From Escherichia coli (GTDB taxonomy: Bacteria; Pseudomonadota; Gammaproteobacteria; Enterobacterales; Enterobacteriaceae), in the NCBI GenBank assembly GCA_032372955.1, contig GCA_032372955.1_4725.1: 64,000 nt of DNA; one strand, written 5' to 3'. The notes beneath the pieces were generated by a model, which was not told the DNA's origin, searched no databases, and saw nothing but the letters and a program-made list of their open reading frames with translations. The position numbers and the translations under genes were made by a program. Below, in pieces: positions 10,189-43,480 of this stretch; position 1 is the first letter of the stretch, and each line of letters begins with the position of its first letter.

Positions 10189-10244
10189 CTTCCTCCCCGC
10201 CCGTTATGGGTAGGGAGGAAGATATGCTAACTATTTTTTTTTTT
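10189..10244. terminator. bidirectional intrinsic terminator between convergent genes
   Basis: CTTCCTCCC(10189-10197)/GGGAGGAAG(10213-10221); plus side ATATGCTAAC then T11 run (10234-10244); minus side stem then TTTATGTCA. Confidence 0.65.
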
Positions 10245-11694
10245 ACTCGGTGAAGTGTGGTTTATAACCAGCCTGCCATGCGGCGGTCATGGCGTCGTAG
10301 TTGATGTGTGAAGTGCCTGCCGGGAATGTCCAACCACTCAGATCCTGATTGAACGCGAAGCACCCAGACAACATATTGTTTGCATTCTTAACAGACGAAA
10401 CATCCCACGAACCGATCGGTTGGTTGAATGTAGCGCAACCGTAGAAGAGGTCCTTCATTGAAGTAATGTTGCGGGTGTTCCATTTGGTGATGTTCACGTC
10501 GTTAATAACGCTGCATCGCGTAAACATACCTTCTAACGATGTCCAGTATGCCGGGATATAATCGGGAACCTTAGTTAAACTGTTCGCCGCAAGGAATGAT
10601 GGGGCCTTAGGTAATCCGTTGTTCCAGTCAACGATTTCAGTGATGTTACCACCGGTGAAGCTTTGCTGTACCTCTGTATCTTCAACATTGGTAGGGGTAC
10701 CCGTAGCGACGATCGTACGTTCCGTAGTGTCCGCATAAGTGTGCCGATATTCATTATCGCCTGAGTCCTGCGTCGTCTTATTCCCATCACCCCAATCGAT
10801 ATTGACATTTGTCCAACCATCTAATGACAATATAATGCTGCCGCCTTTTGTTTTAAGAACGTATTGGATTGGTTTAGGTGAAGCGTGACCAACAACCATA
10901 GCACCCTTAAGGCTACCGATAACCCAATCTTTCTTGGTGGTTACCAGTAACTCGGCGTCACCGTATGACCGCACCTCTACTCTACGAGCGTCTTCGCTTC
11001 CGTTAATTGTCTGCATTGCTTGTTGCATTTGTTCGCTGGTAATATCACCATAACGAACCATGACGTTCAGGATATTCTGGAAGTACGCAGCGTCAAGGAC
11101 ACCTTCAGTTGTTTCGGCATTTCCGTTTTCGCCGATAACCGAGGTTGTTGCTAACAGTAACGAACCAGATGTGTCAGCTTCAACGCCATCCAGATAAACC
11201 AGATTCGTAAGATTGGTTTGCTTGATGATCGTAATCAAGCTCAACGTATCGTTAGCGATATTGAACTGAAGATTACCAGCCCAAACATAAGACGTGTTTG
11301 CAACCGGAACCGTAATGTCTTTAATACCGGTGTCTTCGAACGTAATCTGCTTATTCAGCTCGGATTCGAGGAAGTCGACGGTTGTGTCGAATACCAATCC
11401 GTAACGTTCAGCGATCGTGTTGATGATATCCCTTACGGCGGTATCATTTTTAACGATAACCCGTAACGGGATCCCAGTGAAGTTTTTAGCGATGTCTCGA
11501 CGGATATAGGTCAGGGACTGCTCGTTAAAGTAACGGCTAGCATCGTTCGGTTTGATCGTAACAACAACCGTTCCGGGCACTTCGCTTACCGGTTCAGTTA
11601 GTTCAAATTTTACGTCGTCTAATGTCAGCTGTAAGCTGTTTTTGCTATTTACTAACGCGAGAAGTTCGTCTTTCCAGCTTTGTTTGAGTTTCAT
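10243..11694 (-). CDS. putative receptor-binding/tail-fibre family protein: shared N-terminal anchor domain plus C-terminal DUF285/BspA-like repeats
   Basis: N-terminal ~130 aa paralogous to ORFs 53839..54366 and 60057..62669 (WKDELL..RRDIAKNFTGIPLRVIV..ERYGLVFD); C-terminal FYGCATFNQPIGSWDVSSV..MLSGCFAFNQDLSGWTF matches the DUF285 repeat pattern. Confidence 0.55.
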   Translation of the reverse strand: MKLKQSWKDELLALVNSKNSLQLTLDDVKFELTEPVSEVPGTVVVTIKPNDASRYFNEQSLTYIRRDIAKNFTGIPLRVIVKNDTAVRDIINTIAERYGLVFDTTVDFLESELNKQITFEDTGIKDITVPVANTSYVWAGNLQFNIANDTLSLITIIKQTNLTNLVYLDGVEADTSGSLLLATTSVIGENGNAETTEGVLDAAYFQNILNVMVRYGDITSEQMQQAMQTINGSEDARRVEVRSYGDAELLVTTKKDWVIGSLKGAMVVGHASPKPIQYVLKTKGGSIILSLDGWTNVNIDWGDGNKTTQDSGDNEYRHTYADTTERTIVATGTPTNVEDTEVQQSFTGGNITEIVDWNNGLPKAPSFLAANSLTKVPDYIPAYWTSLEGMFTRCSVINDVNITKWNTRNITSMKDLFYGCATFNQPIGSWDVSSVKNANNMLSGCFAFNQDLSGWTFPAGTSHINYDAMTAAWQAGYKPHFTE

Positions 11695-11793: not shown

Positions 11794-13875
11794 TCACCAT
11801 TCCAAGAACGCAGGTCGTGGTTTAATATCGTATTCCGTGGTGTTTACGGTAACGTATTGATCGTATCCTTCCATCGCCAACGTTTCTTGCAAGTTAACAT
11901 CATCTTGCTTGTTCACAACATATTTGACACCCGTGATTTCTTCAACAAGCTGTCGACTTAACTCCATGATTTCGTGGCTACGTGTAGAAACGTTACCCTC
12001 GCTTCCCGTATCTAACATGAAACGATAAATCCGAACAGGTTGCGTTTGCCCTACACGGTCAAGACGGCTGATGGCTTGGATTTCATCGGATGAACGCCAT
12101 GGGTTGTTCAGGAAAAGACCGACATTACACATCAGCATCGGAACCCCTTCAGCTAAGCTATCAAATGTTGCGATAGCGGGACCGCTGTCAGGATCATCGC
12201 GTAAGCGAGCAAGTATCTGGTTGATGTTCTTGTTGGTCTTCCCGTAAATGGGTTCAGGTAAGAAACCCGCATCACGAAGCATGTTGTCGACGCGCTCAAC
12301 CACCTGAACGTACGACGTGAAGATCAACACTTTGGCTTCAGCGTTGTTGATGTACCCTTCGAAGTCGATGTACTCCACCATGTCGACATGACACCGAATG
12401 CGGGCTGCACCTAGAACACGGGCCAACGCTTCACCCTGAATTTTCAACCCAACGTACTTGATGACACTCTTGGCGTCTTTGAAAGCAATCCTTAAATCGG
12501 AAGGAAGAACCGGCATGATAGAACGTTTTTCAAACGCATTGCAGAACATCGCATCTTCTTTGTCTCTGACGGGATCGTAACCTTTCTGGAAACGAGCGAC
12601 GATCGATTCGTATCGAGATAGCTCTTTACGTTCTCCGTCGGTACGAATAGTCTTACGATAGTAGTCCAAGGCGTCATCAAAAATCTTTCTGTAGTGTCCC
12701 CAGTTATCCTTGTAATACTTCGCCCGATCGCGTACAAATATCGCCATGTCGTCGCGGATACTCGAGATGGTATAATCGCTGCCGTTAGGGAGCTTCACGT
12801 AAACATCCTGAACTTCCGGTCGGGTTTTACGATAAGCTTCTTTAGGTACAACATGCATCATGAACCCAAGACGATGTCTGAGGATATCGTTAGCGCGACT
12901 GCTGGTTAAACCGTAAATCGCTTTGAAGCTATCGACCACCTGTCCTTGGAACATCGGGTCGATACAACCTAAACATGGGATCATCTCAGAACCCATCTGT
13001 TTAACGGGCGTACCCGACATAAACAAGACATGCACATCCGCATTCATGGTCTGACGCATCGTCTGTACGAGATCAACCAATCGTTGGGAACGTTGGCTGT
13101 TCTTGTCGTTGAAGTTATGGCTTTCGTCAACCACGATCAACACGCGCTTCGCTGTGCGTTTATGCTTGATCATTACATCGTTTAATAAACCCATCGACTC
13201 GTAATGCAGAAAATAATACTTATCGCTTTTCTGCAACTGTGATGGTGGCATTGTATCTGACCAGAACGCGGTTTCTGTTGCGGGGTCAACGATGGCTTTG
13301 TTTACATCGGATTGCCATGCTGAACGCATGGTGTTCTTAGGACAGCAGACCACAAATACATCGACGTTCATTGCGGCGCTTAAAGCCAATGCGGTGATTG
13401 TTTTACCGGCACCAGCACCCATCGCACACACGTATCCTTTCAGTCGGTATTTAGGTACGTTACGGTTATAGATGTCGATAAACTCATCTTGATAATCGAA
13501 CAGGGAGAGCGTTAGCATTTTGTTCATGCGTGCTTTATCGAGGATTGCAGGTTGTTCGATTGTGGTATTTTGCAGCCACGTTTCCTGCAGCAGTACCTCA
13601 ATAAGGTGTTTCAGCATGCGTTTGTTACTGCGGGTATTCTTTGCTTCGATGATCGTTTCGAGAATATAAACGAAATCGGGAAGGTAAAAGTTGTGGAGAC
13701 TGAGTCCACTAGAAGAGAAATTACGAAACATATGTTTCATAAATCGGGAGGTACCCCATATTCGCTGAATGTCATCTGAAAGACGCCAGGCATCGATACC
13801 CCCGATATGCACGGTGTTGTTACTCTGATTTTTAACCGCTATTCGGTTCATTAAACGATTGATTCTATCCAACAT
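11794..13875 (-). CDS. SNF2/DEAD-like SF2 helicase
   Basis: Walker A GAGAGKT, motif II VVDESHN, motif III FMSGTP, motif VI AISRLDRVGQTQPV; ATG at 13875 preferred over GTG at 13923, which lies inside stem-loop 13911..13939. Confidence 0.6.
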   Translation of the reverse strand: MLDRINRLMNRIAVKNQSNNTVHIGGIDAWRLSDDIQRIWGTSRFMKHMFRNFSSSGLSLHNFYLPDFVYILETIIEAKNTRSNKRMLKHLIEVLLQETWLQNTTIEQPAILDKARMNKMLTLSLFDYQDEFIDIYNRNVPKYRLKGYVCAMGAGAGKTITALALSAAMNVDVFVVCCPKNTMRSAWQSDVNKAIVDPATETAFWSDTMPPSQLQKSDKYYFLHYESMGLLNDVMIKHKRTAKRVLIVVDESHNFNDKNSQRSQRLVDLVQTMRQTMNADVHVLFMSGTPVKQMGSEMIPCLGCIDPMFQGQVVDSFKAIYGLTSSRANDILRHRLGFMMHVVPKEAYRKTRPEVQDVYVKLPNGSDYTISSIRDDMAIFVRDRAKYYKDNWGHYRKIFDDALDYYRKTIRTDGERKELSRYESIVARFQKGYDPVRDKEDAMFCNAFEKRSIMPVLPSDLRIAFKDAKSVIKYVGLKIQGEALARVLGAARIRCHVDMVEYIDFEGYINNAEAKVLIFTSYVQVVERVDNMLRDAGFLPEPIYGKTNKNINQILARLRDDPDSGPAIATFDSLAEGVPMLMCNVGLFLNNPWRSSDEIQAISRLDRVGQTQPVRIYRFMLDTGSEGNVSTRSHEIMELSRQLVEEITGVKYVVNKQDDVNLQETLAMEGYDQYVTVNTTEYDIKPRPAFLEW

Positions 13876-13910
13876 AATCGCGCTCGATTTAATAGAATGT
13901 ATGATAAAAA

Positions 13911-13939
13911 CTCCTCCCCACACCTTTCCTGGGGAGGAG
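13911..13939. promoter_or_regulatory. GC-rich stem-loop in a divergent intergenic region
   Basis: CTCCTCCCC(13911-13919)/GGGGAGGAG(13931-13939) between the start of minus gene 11794..13875 and plus gene 14084..14770. Confidence 0.4.
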
Positions 13940-14018
13940 GCCGGGGATGTCCCTTAAAATGACGTCATTCGACAATCCATAAAATACGATGGGCATCGAA
14001 ACGGACCAACACAAATCC

Positions 14019-14042
14019 TTTCACGGCTATATTACTTACGTG
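14019..14042 (+). promoter_or_regulatory. candidate phage promoter, TATATTAC-containing conserved motif (copy 1)
   Basis: TTTCACGGCTATATTACTTACGTG, 20/20 nt core identical to 43431..43450; about 45 nt upstream of ATG 14084. Confidence 0.45.
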
Positions 14043-14083
14043 GGTAAAGAAAATTTATTAATAGATTCAAAGAGGTACGTGCG

Positions 14084-14770
14084 ATGAAATCTTTATATTC
14101 GTTGGATTGTTTAAATTTCTTATCTCAGGAAACACGCGCTGAAGTAATTGAAAATATTCGGAAGAACGATCTTGCCCATCAAGAAGAACATGTGCTTGCT
14201 GTTGTTGAACTGGCAAATGAACTTGCTGATGTGGTTGGTATCATCAAGCCCACGGAACGTCGTCGTCTATTAACGGCTGCTTTTATGCATGATATCGCTT
14301 GCCACGAAAACAGAACATACCACCACCTTATCGGGGGTATTCGTGCGTCGGTTATACTGCTTCGTAACGAGCAGCATATTTTCACACCGGAAGACATCGA
14401 GGAGATACGCGTACTTATTGCTGAGCATCGTGCGTCGTATTCTGGTCCACGTAGCTCGGTTGCTTCTCAGGTGCTTCGTCTGGCGGATATGGGTCGTCTC
14501 GATAGCGAACGTTTTGGTATCCGTGCAATCGAACATCGTTACGGTCAGATGAGCAAAGAGTTCGCATTACAGGAAACCGCCGACTATCTTATTTCTAAAT
14601 TTGCGCCTGATGGCTACGCTTGGATTACGTATCCGGCGTTAGGTCAGCAACTTTATATGAAAGAGATTGCGGTGATTAAATCGCTCTGTGCGGATCGTGA
14701 TAAACTCATTGCTTATTTGGATGATGTTTATACGTATGTTGAAAAGAAACATGGTGAAATCATGTGTTAA
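14084..14770 (+). CDS. HD-domain phosphohydrolase
   Basis: H..HD..H..D pattern (EEHVLAV, AAFMHDIACHE, AEHRAS, LRLADMG); AGAGG RBS. Confidence 0.55.
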   Translation: MKSLYSLDCLNFLSQETRAEVIENIRKNDLAHQEEHVLAVVELANELADVVGIIKPTERRRLLTAAFMHDIACHENRTYHHLIGGIRASVILLRNEQHIFTPEDIEEIRVLIAEHRASYSGPRSSVASQVLRLADMGRLDSERFGIRAIEHRYGQMSKEFALQETADYLISKFAPDGYAWITYPALGQQLYMKEIAVIKSLCADRDKLIAYLDDVYTYVEKKHGEIMC

Positions 14771-14792
14771 ACATGAAAGCGGAGAATAATGA

Positions 14793-15275
14793 ATGAGTAT
14801 CGTTGATTTAACATTAACAGAAGTTGGTGATGGTATTGAGGTTTCGATGAAAACCTCCGACGATCGCACCGTTGTTGCTAAACTGGAAGAAACCCTGTAC
14901 GGCAATTACGTGGTGGGCGTTTCAGGGAAGGTGAGTATGTATCGCCTGGCTGGTATTTTAAGCGTCTTTGATGGGGGATTGCTGCCGTCCGACCAACTCG
15001 AGCTCCAGAACAAATTGATCGACAATGACTTCTACACGGAAAATGTGAAAGTCTTTGGTTACAGCATGATGGGTGGTGTATTTAGCGCCGCGACGAACAC
15101 GCTTAACTTCGGTACCCAACAACTGATTCAGTTCAGTATCGAAAAGGGTAAACTGAAAACGGCGTGGAAAGGCAGCGCTGCATTCACACCAACCGATCTT
15201 CTGCTTACTTCCGCAGAACAGCATTTAAAAGCAAGTAAATCGGGTCGTGCGTTTCTGGAGCAATTAAATCAATGA
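14793..15275 (+). CDS. hypothetical protein
   Basis: 160 codons, GGAG RBS. Confidence 0.5.
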   Translation: MSIVDLTLTEVGDGIEVSMKTSDDRTVVAKLEETLYGNYVVGVSGKVSMYRLAGILSVFDGGLLPSDQLELQNKLIDNDFYTENVKVFGYSMMGGVFSAATNTLNFGTQQLIQFSIEKGKLKTAWKGSAAFTPTDLLLTSAEQHLKASKSGRAFLEQLNQ

Positions 15276-15829
15276 CCCCGGCCATCTTCTTTATGTCGGA
15301 TACCCATTTTGATAGCGAGCGTACCTGGACGTATTCACGCCGTCCGTTCGCAAGCGTCGCTGATATGAACCAGCACATGCTGAAAGCCATCAACAAGCTT
15401 CCAAAGAACAGTGTGTTGTGGCATTTAGGTGATTGGGGTAAGTTCGAGTTCGTGGAAGCCATTCGTTCTGATATCCAGGTTCAATTGGTATTGGGGAATT
15501 GGGACGAAGACGCATACAAAGCAACAGGATTAAGCTTTGAAGCGTGGCGTGATAAATTGCTCGGTATGGGGTTTGCTGCGGTTTATGAACATCCGTTGGT
15601 ATTGCCGATTAGCAATGACGAATCCTACTGGCTATGCCATAAGCCCAGCGAAAGAAACCCAGGCTACTTTAATTTATTCGGTCATATTCATCGCTGTATG
15701 TTAGCGAAGGCTAACGGACTTAATGTCGGCGTTGATCAGCATTTCTATGCGCCGATTAGTTTGGACACCGTGCGTTTTTGGCGTAATGCGATAGAAAATC
15801 ATTACGACGAAGAAGTATGGATGGAGTGA
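15272..15829 (+). CDS. calcineurin-like metallophosphoesterase
   Basis: Motifs SDTHF (DxH), HLGDWG (GD), LGNWDED (GNHD/E-like), FGHIH (GHxH). Confidence 0.6.
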   Translation: MTPAIFFMSDTHFDSERTWTYSRRPFASVADMNQHMLKAINKLPKNSVLWHLGDWGKFEFVEAIRSDIQVQLVLGNWDEDAYKATGLSFEAWRDKLLGMGFAAVYEHPLVLPISNDESYWLCHKPSERNPGYFNLFGHIHRCMLAKANGLNVGVDQHFYAPISLDTVRFWRNAIENHYDEEVWME

Positions 15830-15839
15830 TCATTAACCA

Positions 15840-15866
15840 CCCTCCCTTCGGGGAGGGTTTATGCTG
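15840..15866 (+). terminator. stem-loop with UUCG tetraloop plus TTTATGCTG
   Basis: CCCTCCC(15840-15846) TTCG GGGAGGG(15851-15857) TTTATGCTG(15858-15866). Confidence 0.55.
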
Positions 15867-15895
15867 CGTTACCAGCACCTGTTAAGGAGATAAAG

Positions 15896-16171
15896 ATGTC
15901 TCGATCATCGACACACCCTGATCCCTGGAAACGATTTCTTAAGGAGCTTCATTATCATGTCGCAGCTCGACCCGGTTTGAGCGCACACCAAATGGAAATC
16001 GTTCTACAGGCGTTACTCATACGACACCCTCAAGTTACACGTATTAAATCATTCATTGGATCTGGAGAGTTCTATGCTTGCAAAAACTGTTTTAGCCGTC
16101 GTGACCATTACATCTACTTCTATTATCGCGCGGTTCCTTCGTCAATGACGGGTCGCGGTGTGGATTTTTAA
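15896..16171 (+). CDS. hypothetical protein
   Basis: 91 codons, AAGGAGA RBS; preceded by 10-codon uORF that starts in the TTTATGCTG motif. Confidence 0.5.
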   Translation: MSRSSTHPDPWKRFLKELHYHVAARPGLSAHQMEIVLQALLIRHPQVTRIKSFIGSGEFYACKNCFSRRDHYIYFYYRAVPSSMTGRGVDF

Positions 16172-16245
16172 CACATGACTACGGTAAAAATTAACGGTTT
16201 TTCATGTTCGTATAGGACATGAAAACAAACAATAAAGGCGTTAGA

Positions 16246-21950: not shown

Positions 21951-22265
21951 ATGTCTGAAAAGCATATTGAAATTCTTGATGCCGCTATCGCTTCGAAAGA
22001 TAGCGGTACATTCATCAAAGCGGTATTTGCAGAACAGCGTAATAACCCAGCAACGCTGAATAAAGTTCGTGATGCAATTGCATTCCGTCTTACCAAGTCA
22101 GATATTTCTGATGTGGATAAAACAACGATGCGTAAATTACGCGACGATCTTAATGCATACATCGCTCGTGGTTGTACGGATAAAACCGTTCGTGAGGTTC
22201 TCGATTCTAACGTGAAATACGAATCAGACTTCAAGAAGAACGGTTCAACACCGAAAACAGAATAA
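21951..22265 (+). CDS. hypothetical protein
   Basis: 104 codons, AAGGAAAGAAG RBS. Confidence 0.5.
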   Translation: MSEKHIEILDAAIASKDSGTFIKAVFAEQRNNPATLNKVRDAIAFRLTKSDISDVDKTTMRKLRDDLNAYIARGCTDKTVREVLDSNVKYESDFKKNGSTPKTE

Positions 22266-43413: not shown

Positions 43414-43430
43414 ATGGGTTAATACATTAA

Positions 43431-43480
43431 TTTTCACGGCTATATTACTTAGGTGAAGCAATGCAGTAATCAGCTTCACC
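43431..43480 (+). promoter_or_regulatory. candidate phage promoter, TATATTAC motif (copy 2), followed by a 5' hairpin
   Basis: TTTTCACGGCTATATTACTTAGGTG then GGTGAAGC(43452-43459)/GCTTCACC(43473-43480). Confidence 0.45.

Follow-up and report, generated by a model that had tools for sequence, protein, structure and literature searches.

Two probably active phosphohydrolases encoded in a clade-specific early cassette of a Goslar-type jumbo phage

Introduction

The stretch of DNA analysed here (the window, 64,000 nucleotides) encodes an HD-domain phosphohydrolase and a metallophosphoesterase (MPE) within 1.8 kb, and the locus raises the question of whether these two enzymes work as a pair, and on what. 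A reading of the letters alone, hereafter the sequence-only reading, proposed a candidate counter-defence or nucleotide-metabolism module. The nucleotide-target idea has been published: Iyer et al. 2021 predicted that the HD and calcineurin-like phosphodiesterases of jumbo phages counter nucleotide signalling (PMC7824862). The window is 95.8% identical at the nucleotide level to the E. coli jumbo phage Goslar, and the Goslar orthologs of the three genes concerned are gp159 (HD), gp158 and gp157 (MPE). Since RefSeq gives gp159 and gp157 the same domain names as those used here, and the idea of a nucleotide target is already in print, little is new in the two genes as found. What is novel here is the anatomy of the unit, promoter-HD-gp158-MPE-terminator.

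Results

The three genes are all encoded on the plus strand. The HD gene at 14084..14770 (228 aa, 98.7% amino acid identity to Goslar gp159) is preceded by an AAGAGG ribosome-binding site, and is followed by the gp158 ortholog at 14793..15275 (160 aa, no recognisable domain) and by the gene for a small MPE of the AQ_665/COG4186 type at 15272..15829 (185 aa, 98.9% amino acid identity to Goslar gp157). The two enzyme ORFs lie exactly where the sequence-only reading had placed them, and both products pass their Pfam thresholds. An early-promoter-like element, CCTTTCACGGCTATATTACTTACGTG, is located at 14016..14041 on the plus strand, about 45 nt 5' of the HD start codon. At the other end, an intrinsic-terminator-like hairpin on the plus strand (15840..15862; CCCTCCC-TTCG-GGGAGGG, then TTTAT) begins 11 nt past the MPE stop codon. 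The Goslar annotation places a terminator under the match to this hairpin, and a TTCG-loop hairpin with a T-run was also found 3' of the MPE gene in the diverged locus L055. Upstream, a GC-rich hairpin on the minus strand (13903..13939; CTCCTCCCC...GGGGAGGAG, then TTTTTAT) forms a terminator-like boundary between the cassette and a divergent SNF2 helicase gene, whose RefSeq start is equivalent to window position 13875; the Goslar annotation has a minus-strand terminator at L001 8014-8038, which corresponds to 13913-13937 of the window. The early-type promoter, the three genes and the downstream terminator make up one three-gene operon.

The element upstream of the HD gene was compared within the window and with Goslar. 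Its exact 12-mer occurs twice in the window, and its exact 15-mer is present at four places in Goslar, one of them the cassette site, all of them intergenic and co-oriented with the downstream gene. The element is kept 5' of the HD gene in the diverged loci L054 and L079. The 8-mer TATATTAC, which may resemble the phiKZ early-promoter consensus, was ruled out as an enriched promoter core (2 exact matches vs 2.9 expected), and the longer element is the informative signal. A scan for sigma-70 promoters upstream of the cassette gave no match, and none is expected because the phage uses its own RNA polymerases. A near-identical copy of CCTTTCACGGCTATATTACTTACGTG starts about 91 nt 5' of the chmA ATG, and the chmA transcription start site sequence displayed by Armbruster et al. 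starts at that element. These positions suggest that the element at 14016..14041 acts as an early promoter.

The published RNA-seq data for Goslar were examined for the timing of expression. The genes gp157-159 share the early, phage-nucleus-independent class with the whole gp106-gp159 block. When ChmA was knocked down, their transcripts at 30 min changed by a log2 fold of +0.66 to +1.1 against the control, and the reads of the helicase gp160 fell from about 1,200 to about 11. The cassette would be transcribed as a separate early unit of a Goslar-type nucleus-forming jumbo phage, from the genome as injected and both before and independently of the phage nucleus.

The HD protein passes the Pfam HD model (PF01966; E 5.7e-8, 33.5 bits vs a cut-off of 22) and matches phrog_3921 (E 2e-30). 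Its H..HD..D motif consists of H36, H69-D70 and D135, and these residues are invariant in a family alignment of 49 sequences, together with N28, D29, A31, H32, C73, R77, H80, H81, E114, H115, R116, R147 and K172. In the phage protein, six residues form an H..HD..H..H..D pattern, which suggests a dinuclear site, unlike the mononuclear one of YpgQ. When the family profile was compared with the PDB, 2PQ7 was found at 2.4e-7 and YedJ at 3.5e-7, with the D-x-A-H-x3-H motif included, and YpgQ was aligned across the whole HD core, but without significance (E 0.63). The best Foldseek matches of the HD model belong to the same YedJ/2PQ7/YpgQ group, and by sequence the nearest cellular relatives appear to be stand-alone HD hydrolases of this type. 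As a separate observation, R136, F140 and H158 of YpgQ fall opposite R147, position 151 and H168 of the HD protein when matched by spacing, not by alignment. The signature motif of HD-GYP proteins is HHExxDGxGYP; no full-length HD-GYP domain match with this motif was found in the HD protein.

YpgQ is a Mn-dependent (d)NTP pyrophosphohydrolase, and PenF is an NMP phosphatase (PMC8177086, PMC11592144). The HD family comprises about 95 phage records, mostly chimallivirus-like, and is spread over the phiKZ-like jumbo phages. In pTD1-like Vibrio phages, an HD homolog is located between the genes for DHFR and ThyA (5 loci, 4 of them distinct), a neighbourhood limited to one clade of Vibrio/Photobacterium phages. 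A second 'putative phosphohydrolase' near the HD gene of Salmonella phage SA002 was also considered, and neither an HD nor an MPE domain was detected in it. A role on nucleotides, as the sequence-only reading had it, stands as the most reasonable guess for the HD protein from its YpgQ/PenF relatives and the DHFR-thymidylate synthase context, and the part of that proposal concerned with immune signals gained no match to a known anti-defence family.

The MPE passes Pfam Metallophos_2 (PF12850; E 4e-8, 33.8 bits vs a cut-off of 27) and matches phrog_547 (E 1e-30). The Pfam and PHROG matches of both enzymes are far beyond chance. The motifs of the MPE are D10-x-H12, G53-D54, G75-N76-W-D78-E79 and G137-H138-x-H140, with H123 in addition. 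Across 52 homologs, D10, H12, G53, D54, H123, G137, H138 and H140 never vary; G75 and N76 are kept in 90% or more. Motif III of the family is GN(Y/W)(E/D), with GNWD here and GNYE in the family, not the classical GNH(D/E), and lacks the classical His. The AF2 model (pLDDT 97) matches AQ_665 (1XM7) with a Foldseek E of 4.9e-9, a probability of 1.00, a TM of 0.68 in both directions and 21% identity, and a RefSeq note likewise gives the Goslar MPE as COG4186. The profile and structure searches confirmed the HD superfamily and the Metallophos_2/AQ_665-type fold, and the two proteins encoded in the window have every metal ligand of the motifs named by the sequence-only reading (H..HD..D and DxH/GD/GNxDE/GHxH).

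Synonymous and nonsynonymous substitutions were counted for the three genes. The ratios were 28:11, 35:6 and 71:14 in three comparisons of the MPE gene, 38:14 for gp158 and 21:3 for the HD gene, the last in the comparison with Goslar only; the HD counts for L063-L065 were left out because a coordinate offset of 1-2 nt distorts them. Both enzymes are most likely active, because their metal-binding sites are complete and purifying selection is seen in gp158 and the MPE gene, and in the HD gene in one comparison.

A division of labour like that of phage T5 was weighed for this pair, in which the MPE would be a nuclease on host DNA and the HD protein would dephosphorylate the freed nucleotides, as T5 Dmp does. 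The genes of the T5 pre-early region are arranged alike, as dmp, two small genes and A1; PenF, a relative of YpgQ, is a 5'-nucleotidase; and DNase together with anti-defence activity has been documented for a phage MPE (PMC12287305). For mycobacteriophage A10ZJ24 gp48, nuclease action on host DNA has been shown, and for T5 A1 it has been proposed. After AQ_665, the next fold matches of the MPE model are to the exonuclease subunit of PolD, but these are weak (E 0.01-0.02, TM 0.4-0.5). A local match to the ligase-associated endonuclease PdeM (TIGR04123, NCBIfam) covers residues 117-147 only and stays below threshold, at 19.7 bits vs a cut-off of 150. The 185-aa MPE carries no DNA-binding module, and homology to T5 Dmp, T5 A1 or Bxb1 gp47 was not detected (hhalign probability of 1% or less, no Pfam matches). 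We consider such host-DNA disposal quite improbable.

The MPE family holds about 129 records, including Yoloswag-like phages and phages of Enterococcus, Bacillus and Streptomyces, and a search of its loci for a recurrent neighbour that would reveal function gave none beyond synteny within lineages. RNA ligase genes lie 2-4 genes away from the MPE homolog in Yoloswag and in Vibrio phage D479, which brings up RNA end-healing: the MPE, the HD protein or both would strip 2',3'-cyclic or 3'-phosphates, ahead of ligation, from RNAs that host anticodon nucleases have cleaved. Iyer et al. suggested that calcineurin-like and HD domains may supply the phosphatase role in some jumbo phages, and CthPnkp and lambda phosphatase are MPEs with 2',3'-cyclic phosphodiesterase activity (PMC2190708). 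On the other hand, the Goslar annotation contains neither an RNA ligase nor a polynucleotide kinase, the D479 and Yoloswag ligases have no homolog in Goslar or in the window, and RNA ligase is not a recurrent neighbour over 35 MPE loci. Coupling of the cassette to RNA repair was set aside with the missing Goslar ligase, and the reading is highly improbable.

The linkage of the three genes was followed through other loci. The HD-gp158-MPE triad is present in 12 of the 12 other loci that bear a gp158 homolog, in three lineages. Outside this clade the two enzyme families were never found close together: an HD-family gene was near the MPE gene in 0 of 35 other MPE loci (IMG/VR, flanks of about 10 kb), and of the 19 HD loci from beyond the Goslar clade, two of which are duplicate records, none had an MPE gene nearby. 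The pairing as a two-enzyme module, proposed by the sequence-only reading, does not survive these counts. Our own interim view that the pairing is not conserved at all was revised by the 12 gp158 loci to conservation within the Goslar clade only. The HD-MPE adjacency is a gene order fixed in that clade, and no widely conserved two-enzyme system. Within the clade, the gene next downstream varies between lineages, and the triad is retained together with its promoter and terminator. This retention hints at selection to keep the three together, for which independent functions would give no explanation. In the Goslar-like group, gp158 ends and the MPE gene begins within a shared ATGA, which suggests translational coupling of gp158 and the MPE, and the two diverged lineages have gaps of 10-20 nt instead.

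The gene between the two enzymes gave no match in Pfam, PHROG, NCBIfam, PADLOC or the PDB. Its family forms only 3 clusters among 1.84 billion representative proteins. A tblastn search against phages had made gp158 look like a strict ORFan, which was overturned by homologs of 38% and 36% identity on metagenomic contigs. The conserved gene downstream of HD in RisingSun, Miami, ACP1, OBP and Yubaba was considered as a homolog from which gp158 had diverged, and was rejected (BLASTP E 1.4, hhalign probability 0.06%); its products have an N-terminal hydrophobic helix, and gp158 has none. Published LC-MS/MS of CsCl-purified Goslar virions found gp158 at about 926 copies per virion (19 peptides, 62% coverage), which ranks it second by abundance among the unmodelled virion proteins. 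The 'one small gene' of the sequence-only reading is there, with a product of 160 aa, but it is no spacer; its product ranks among the most abundant proteins of Goslar virion preparations.

The same data gave about 75 copies of the MPE per virion (14 peptides, 63% coverage), equal to the tail-fibre protein gp029, and about 1 copy of the HD protein. These numbers raise the possibility that gp158 and the MPE are loaded in the capsid and delivered with the DNA, so that the MPE would act at injection, in or around the early infection vesicle, and the HD protein only after de novo synthesis. The ATGA overlap that joins the two genes fits this arrangement, but not their separation in the diverged lineages. 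Most virion proteins are late and nucleus-dependent (gp22, gp23, gp41), but early transcription is compatible with packaging because the modelled structural proteins gp126 (collar) and gp146 (capsid latch) also come from genes of this early-class block. The 75 MPE copies are within the range of carry-over, because PhuZ and chimallin, both of them intracellular, were detected in the same preparation at about 171 and about 126 copies, and the Goslar proteins validated by GFP fusion include neither gp158 nor gp157. Packaging of gp158 and the MPE as delivered proteins appears rather unlikely on this balance.

Discussion

The reading that we prefer, at a probability of roughly 0.5, is that of an early Goslar-type operon in which the HD protein is a nucleotide-pool enzyme and the MPE an independently acquired phosphodiesterase, without a shared two-enzyme system. 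Most likely, the HD protein would act early in infection in the cytoplasm of the host, hydrolysing a free nucleotide and so conditioning or sanitising the pool. The candidate reactions are (d)NTP to (d)NMP and PPi, (d)NMP to nucleoside and Pi, and possibly the cleavage of a cyclic mononucleotide. The MPE belongs to a different family, scattered among unrelated large phages, and is probably a phosphodiesterase acquired on its own. Against this reading stand the close relatives YedJ, 2PQ7 and AQ_665, which are structural-genomics proteins without an established substrate, the suggested dinuclear site of the HD protein, the limitation of the DHFR-ThyA neighbourhood to one phage clade, and the joint retention of the triad.

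Alternatively, one or both enzymes might degrade host immune signalling nucleotides in the cytoplasm before the phage nucleus forms, the proposed targets being cyclic mono-, di- or oligonucleotides or ADPR-derived signals. The early, nucleus-independent expression would suit this role, but such timing is weak evidence because 175 of the 249 Goslar genes are early. An extended His-rich site like that of the HD protein is typical of dinuclear HD phosphodiesterases (rule: PMC8177086), and HD and gp158 diverge faster across lineages (identity down to 34-38%) than the neighbouring helicase (55-62%). One MPE homolog, that of L056, has DHHA1, NADAR and Acb1 genes in its surroundings, but this context is a single observation. 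The prediction of Iyer et al. points the same way. Conversely, neither enzyme matches Acb1, Apyc1 or any other known anti-CBASS, anti-Pycsar or anti-Thoeris family; Pfam gives the HD and Metallophos families only for the cassette proteins, and PADLOC has no match for gp157 or gp158, and its one match for the HD protein, to Cas10 HD, is marginal (E 0.007). We regard counter-defence as unlikely: nucleotide-pool conditioning would most likely be the role, and counter-defence is possible but unsupported.

A combined form of these ideas seems improbable, in which gp158 would carry the MPE into the capsid, the HD protein would be made at once from an early promoter, and the proteins would jointly eliminate a host nucleotide signal or nucleic acid ahead of nucleus formation. 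If true, chimalliviruses would have an enzymatic counter-defence packaged in the virion, a type that has not yet been described for them. Overall, the locus probably encodes two active, independently acquired phosphohydrolases in a clade-specific early cassette, and the caveat of the sequence-only reading that function is not determinable from sequence alone stands.

The cassette is of interest as an early operon that is self-contained, having a promoter and a terminator of its own, which is conserved as one unit in three diverged Goslar-like lineages and places an abundant virion-associated protein between two intact phosphohydrolases. The role of the enzymes before the nucleus forms is directly approachable because RNA-targeting knockdown, GFP-virion assays and quantitative virion proteomics exist for Goslar. 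A substrate for either enzyme would annotate phrog_3921 or the AQ_665/COG4186-type MPEs.

Comparison with known systems

Among known systems, Acb1 (2H fold) and Apyc1 (metallo-beta-lactamase fold) are anti-CBASS and anti-Pycsar nucleases that hydrolyse signalling nucleotides, and with the HD-GYP cyclic-dinucleotide phosphodiesterases they represent the function class proposed by the sequence-only reading. In phage T5, Dmp (a dNMP phosphatase) and the calcineurin-like A1 (host-DNA degradation) form an early phosphoesterase-type pair, separated by a few small genes, that is expressed first upon injection. A1 has 556 aa vs the 185 aa of the MPE, and the hhalign probabilities were 1.0% for Dmp against the HD family and 0.5% for A1 against the MPE family; Dmp was dismissed as an HD relative, with no Pfam match and no profile similarity. 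The mycobacteriophage MPEs A10ZJ24 gp48 and Bxb1 gp47 (DNase, anti-defence) are expressed early and have all five motifs (PMC12287305). Bxb1 gp47 (255 aa) reached an hhalign probability of 0.7% against the MPE family of the window, and the ten host genera that recur most often in the MPE tblastn matches do not include those of mycobacteriophages.

The class I cyclic-nucleotide phosphodiesterases (PDE7A, PDE8A, PDE4D and others) are larger eukaryotic proteins (about 320 aa) with 10-18% identity to the HD protein, and their profiles match it in the H..HD stretch only (E about 0.09). The class I signature is H-D-x-x-H, where the phage protein has H-D-x-x-C. Aquifex aeolicus AQ_665 (1XM7, COG4186 'predicted phosphoesterase', 186 aa) has the size and fold of the MPE and is its only significant structural match in Foldseek; it transfers no substrate because it is a structural-genomics protein without an assigned function. 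YedJ (E. coli, 3GW7), 2PQ7 (Thermotogales) and YpgQ (B. subtilis, 5DQV) are stand-alone HD hydrolases which, like the phage HD protein, are all-helical and single-domain, of about 200-240 aa, and appear to have the D-x-A-H-x3-H...HD...H...D pattern in common with it. They share only about 20% identity with it, and the phage family has in addition the invariant C73, R77, H80/H81 and E114-H115-R116 and a C-terminal K-F-x3-G-Y-x-W segment.

Gene organization and candidate promoter element

The window belongs to a phage closely related to Escherichia phage vB_EcoM_Goslar, one of the nucleus-forming jumbo phages in the Chimalliviridae; positions 13900-16200 share 95.8% nucleotide identity with NC_048170. 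Three co-oriented ORFs are found here on one strand: an HD-domain phosphohydrolase gene (HD; 14084-14770, 228 aa), a middle gene (14793-15275, 160 aa) and a metallophosphoesterase gene (MPE; 15272-15829, 185 aa). They correspond to Goslar gp159, gp158 and gp157 with 98.7% (amino acid), 96.9% and 98.9% identity, which RefSeq labels 'HD domain-containing protein', 'hypothetical protein' and 'metallophosphoesterase family protein', respectively. The positions of the HD and MPE ORFs in the sequence-only reading agreed exactly with our ORF calls. The NCBI cluster of the MPE, named 'metallophosphoesterase family protein [Escherichia coli]', comprises 211 sequences, and that of HD 282; this name and these counts suggest that bacterial assemblies or sequencing runs contain DNA of Goslar-like phages. 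A megablast search of window 14000-15900 against 5,426 complete E. coli genomes gave no match.

The cassette is compact. A ribosome-binding site (AAGAGG) is located 5' of the HD gene, the 22-nt spacer between HD and gp158 contains GGAG, and the gp158 stop overlaps the MPE start (ATGA); gp158 and MPE appear to be translationally coupled. A terminator-like hairpin (CCCTCCC-TTCG-GGGAGGG, then TTTAT) is located 11 nt past the MPE stop, and another on the minus strand (13903-13939) separates the cassette from a divergent SNF2 helicase gene. The mechanical ORF call for this helicase starts with GTG at 13923 (709 aa) and overlaps the GC-rich minus-strand hairpin; the RefSeq start, equivalent to 13875 (693 aa), is more plausible. 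Window 10243-11694 (-) encodes a DUF7941 and DUF285/leucine-rich-repeat protein (Goslar gp161), which is among the chimallivirus-specific proteins tied to host recognition in the 2026 Goslar structure preprint; in the diverged metagenomic locus L079, two DUF7941 genes occupy the equivalent position.

The element CCTTTCACGGCTATATTACTTACGTG was found at 14016-14041 (+), about 45 nt 5' of the HD ATG, and its exact 12-mer has one further window copy, intergenic, at 43438. The element of about 25 nt (TTTTCACGGCTATATTACTTAGGTG) occupies 43429-43454 (+) as well as 14016-14041, and about 22066-22089 (-) in Goslar, intergenic and co-oriented with the downstream genes. Goslar has four copies of the exact 15-mer, one of them at the HD gene; all are intergenic and co-oriented with the next gene (gp159, gp004, gp105 and gp182). 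In Goslar, TTTCAGGGTTATATTACCTAGGTG starts about 91 nt 5' of the chmA start codon, the position at which the chmA early transcription start site (TSS) sequence displayed by Armbruster et al. also starts. Because the element matches this sequence with its mapped early TSS, it is probably an early promoter read by the virion RNA polymerase, and we infer that it represents this promoter type in the Goslar-like phage group. Two diverged lineages also keep the element 5' of their HD genes. The Goslar papers examined give no consensus for an early-promoter element.

Early transcription and virion association

In the published Goslar RNA-seq data (ChmA knockdown versus control, 30 min), two classes are seen: structural and late genes go down by 3-7 log2 units, and early genes change by 0 to +1.3. 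The log2 fold changes of gp157, gp158 and gp159 were +0.66 to +1.1 and stay in the early class, and therefore the cassette is transcribed early and independently of the phage nucleus. Their raw reads were similar in size (about 380-690 in controls), and the whole block gp106-gp159 responded in the same way. Reads of the divergent helicase gp160 went from about 1,200 to about 11 in the knockdown.

Quantitative LC-MS/MS of CsCl-purified Goslar virions (10.64898/2026.04.21.720040, Table S4), in which copy numbers are estimates, detected gp158 by 19 peptides (62% coverage) at 926 copies per virion on average (617 low, 1454 high), gp157 by 14 peptides (63%) at 75 copies (50 low, 118 high), and gp159 by 2 peptides (14%) at about 1 copy. 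Among ten unmodelled high-copy proteins without predicted function, gp158 ranked second, behind gp23. The intracellular proteins PhuZ and chimallin were present in the same preparation at about 171 and 126 copies, and thus the MPE copy number is within the carry-over range, while that of gp158 is 5-7 times above this level. The middle gene is early and nucleus-independent, yet its product is abundant in purified virion preparations. We consider it unlikely that gp158 and MPE are packaged as a pair that acts at injection, a reading that can coexist with the others. Early transcription is compatible with packaging, because this early-class block also contains the genes of two modelled structural proteins, gp126 (collar) and gp146 (capsid latch).

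Families and genomic contexts of the two enzymes

Both hydrolase folds recognized in the sequence-only reading were confirmed by Pfam scores, intact and conserved catalytic residues, and confident AlphaFold models. HD scored 33.5 bits against Pfam HD (threshold 22) and 2e-30 against phrog_3921, and its model has a pLDDT of 94.2. H36, H69-D70 and D135 are invariant in a 49-sequence alignment, as are N28, D29, A31, H32, C73, R77, H80, H81, E114, H115, R116, R147 and K172. A PDB search with the single sequence gave no significant match. The family profile matched 2PQ7 at 2.4e-7 (a 'predicted HD superfamily hydrolase') and YedJ of E. coli at 3.5e-7, in alignments that include the D-x-A-H-x3-H motif; it aligned with YpgQ over the whole core but weakly (E 0.63), and with HD-GYP enzymes over only 38-39 residues (E 0.01). 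A review of the HD superfamily (PMC8177086) describes YpgQ as a (d)NTP pyrophosphohydrolase that depends on Mn, and PenF, an NMP phosphatase, has a predicted YpgQ-like core (PMC11592144). The phage family carries the extended H..HD..H..H..D pattern, which denotes a dinuclear site (rule in PMC8177086). Candidate classes for HD are mononucleotide phosphohydrolase and cyclic-nucleotide phosphodiesterase.

The HD family has 95 phage records, almost all from chimallivirus-like jumbo phages (Erwinia, Aeromonas, Vibrio, Klebsiella, Serratia). In other chimalliviruses the gene has one of two locations: it is either part of a protease-to-tail-sheath block, where the next gene encodes a small protein that starts with a hydrophobic helix, or, in the pTD1-like phages of Vibrio and Photobacterium, it is flanked by DHFR and ThyA. 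Sequence comparison showed no relationship of this small protein to gp158. In pTD1 (L005/L076 4393-6657; likewise L069-L071), dihydrofolate reductase overlaps HD by 4 nt and thymidylate synthase follows; pTD1-like phages have a NUDIX hydrolase 3 kb downstream of the HD region. As far as gene context goes, this neighbourhood gives the clearest hint that the HD family may act in nucleotide metabolism.

MPE scored 33.8 bits against Pfam Metallophos_2 (threshold 27) and 1e-30 against phrog_547, with a model pLDDT of 97.3. D10, H12, G53-D54, H123 and G137-H138-x-H140 are invariant in 52 homologs, and G75-N76 is kept in at least 90% of them. Motif III of the family is GN(Y/W)(E/D), not GNH(D/E), and the C-terminus has a family-specific signature, LNVGVD...AIENHYDE. 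A PDB sequence search gave no match; the sole significant fold match was Aquifex AQ_665 (1XM7; E 4.9e-9, TM 0.68), after which the PolD exonuclease subunit and Vps29 matched weakly. A literature search found no characterisation of COG4186 or AQ_665.

The 129 MPE records are from Yoloswag-like Erwinia phages and large Enterococcus, Bacillus and Streptomyces phages, and the IMG/VR loci have no recurrent neighbour gene beyond within-lineage synteny. Homologs are close to GTP cyclohydrolase, RNA ligase and dNMP kinase in Vibrio phage D479, to RNA ligase, sigma factor, SSB and RecA in Yoloswag, and to HNH endonuclease and SprT-like protease in Streptomyces phage Gilson. In Herelleviridae-type Enterococcus phages (EFDG1, L046 4467-7172; also L025, L028-L031, L033, L038), two tandem paralogs directly follow RNase H, and a NinI-like Ser/Thr phosphatase two genes on makes three calcineurin-type genes in a row. 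The next-closest homolog after the triad loci (46% identity) is on an 83-kb metagenomic contig (L056, 4217-13432) with ThyX, DHHA1, 5'-3' exonuclease, NADAR, Acb1 (anti-CBASS) and UvdE, and with neither HD nor gp158; this region resembles an accessory island for counter-defence and nucleic-acid functions. A counter-defence role, with degradation of a signal, is for the window cassette a tentative and somewhat doubtful reading; a PADLOC search of the cassette proteins gave nothing meaningful.

Conservation of the triad

Homologs of gp158 occur in 12 further loci, namely nine Goslar-like contigs (gp158 91-100% identity) and three metagenomic contigs of two deeply diverged lineages, and every one of these keeps the order and orientation HD-gp158-MPE. 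Identities in the metagenomic loci L054/L055 are 38% (HD), 38% (gp158), 51% (MPE) and 46-55% (helicase), and those in L079 are 34%, 36%, 49% (fragment at contig end) and 62%. The gene that follows MPE in L055 lacks a window homolog, and a TTCG-loop terminator is still located 3' of MPE. The invariant triad and the shared terminator thus define a unit that is specific to the clade and conserved at its boundaries. When 1.84 billion representative proteins were searched exhaustively, only these three gp158 lineages were found, so that inherited gene order fits this conservation equally as well as functional linkage. The pairing that prompted the proposal of a counter-defence or nucleotide-metabolism module is conserved as a gene order only within the Goslar clade: an HD-family gene was found in 0 of 35 IMG/VR MPE loci (about 10 kb flank), and MPE in 0 of 19 HD loci outside the clade (two duplicate records). 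Purifying selection was seen on gp158 and MPE, and also on HD in the single valid comparison.

The SNF2 helicase of L054 (2-2437 (-)), homologous to window 11794-13875 (-), has an insertion of about 360 aa inside the Walker A region (after ..LQGYV, ending ..VTHN before T). The window helicase lacks this insertion, which looks like an intein.

Likely role and comparison with characterised systems

The most likely reading, at a probability of about 0.5, is that HD and MPE are both active early phosphohydrolases that were acquired independently of each other, and that HD conditions the nucleotide pool. HD would act on free nucleotides in the cytoplasm, and MPE may act as a phosphodiesterase. Goslar encodes Tmk, ThyA, a macro-domain protein and NAD-dependent DNA ligase; RNA end-healing is highly improbable, because ligase-coupled repair is unlikely in a phage with no recognisable RNA ligase or polynucleotide kinase.

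The T5 pre-early region (L081 124-3376), with dmp (dNMP phosphatase), two small genes and A1 (host-DNA degradation), is strikingly similar in layout to the cassette. However, no homology of T5 Dmp or A1 to the window HD or MPE was detectable, and neither matched a Pfam model at E 0.01; host-DNA disposal of the T5 type is very unlikely. The Bxb1 relative of A10ZJ24 gp48 (anti-defence DNase, PMC12287305) likewise had no detectable homology to MPE, and MPE scored far under the PdeM cut-off.

The adjacent HD and MPE genes are already present in the public Goslar annotation, and a 2021 paper (PMC7824862) had predicted the proposed function class in jumbo phages. Our synthesis adds the operon structure with its inferred early promoter, the clade-specific conservation, the middle gene product as a high-copy virion-associated protein, and the negative results of membership tests with all characterised phage counterparts. 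The enzymes would not surprise a specialist, and the early-transcribed, virion-abundant gp158 between them is mildly intriguing.
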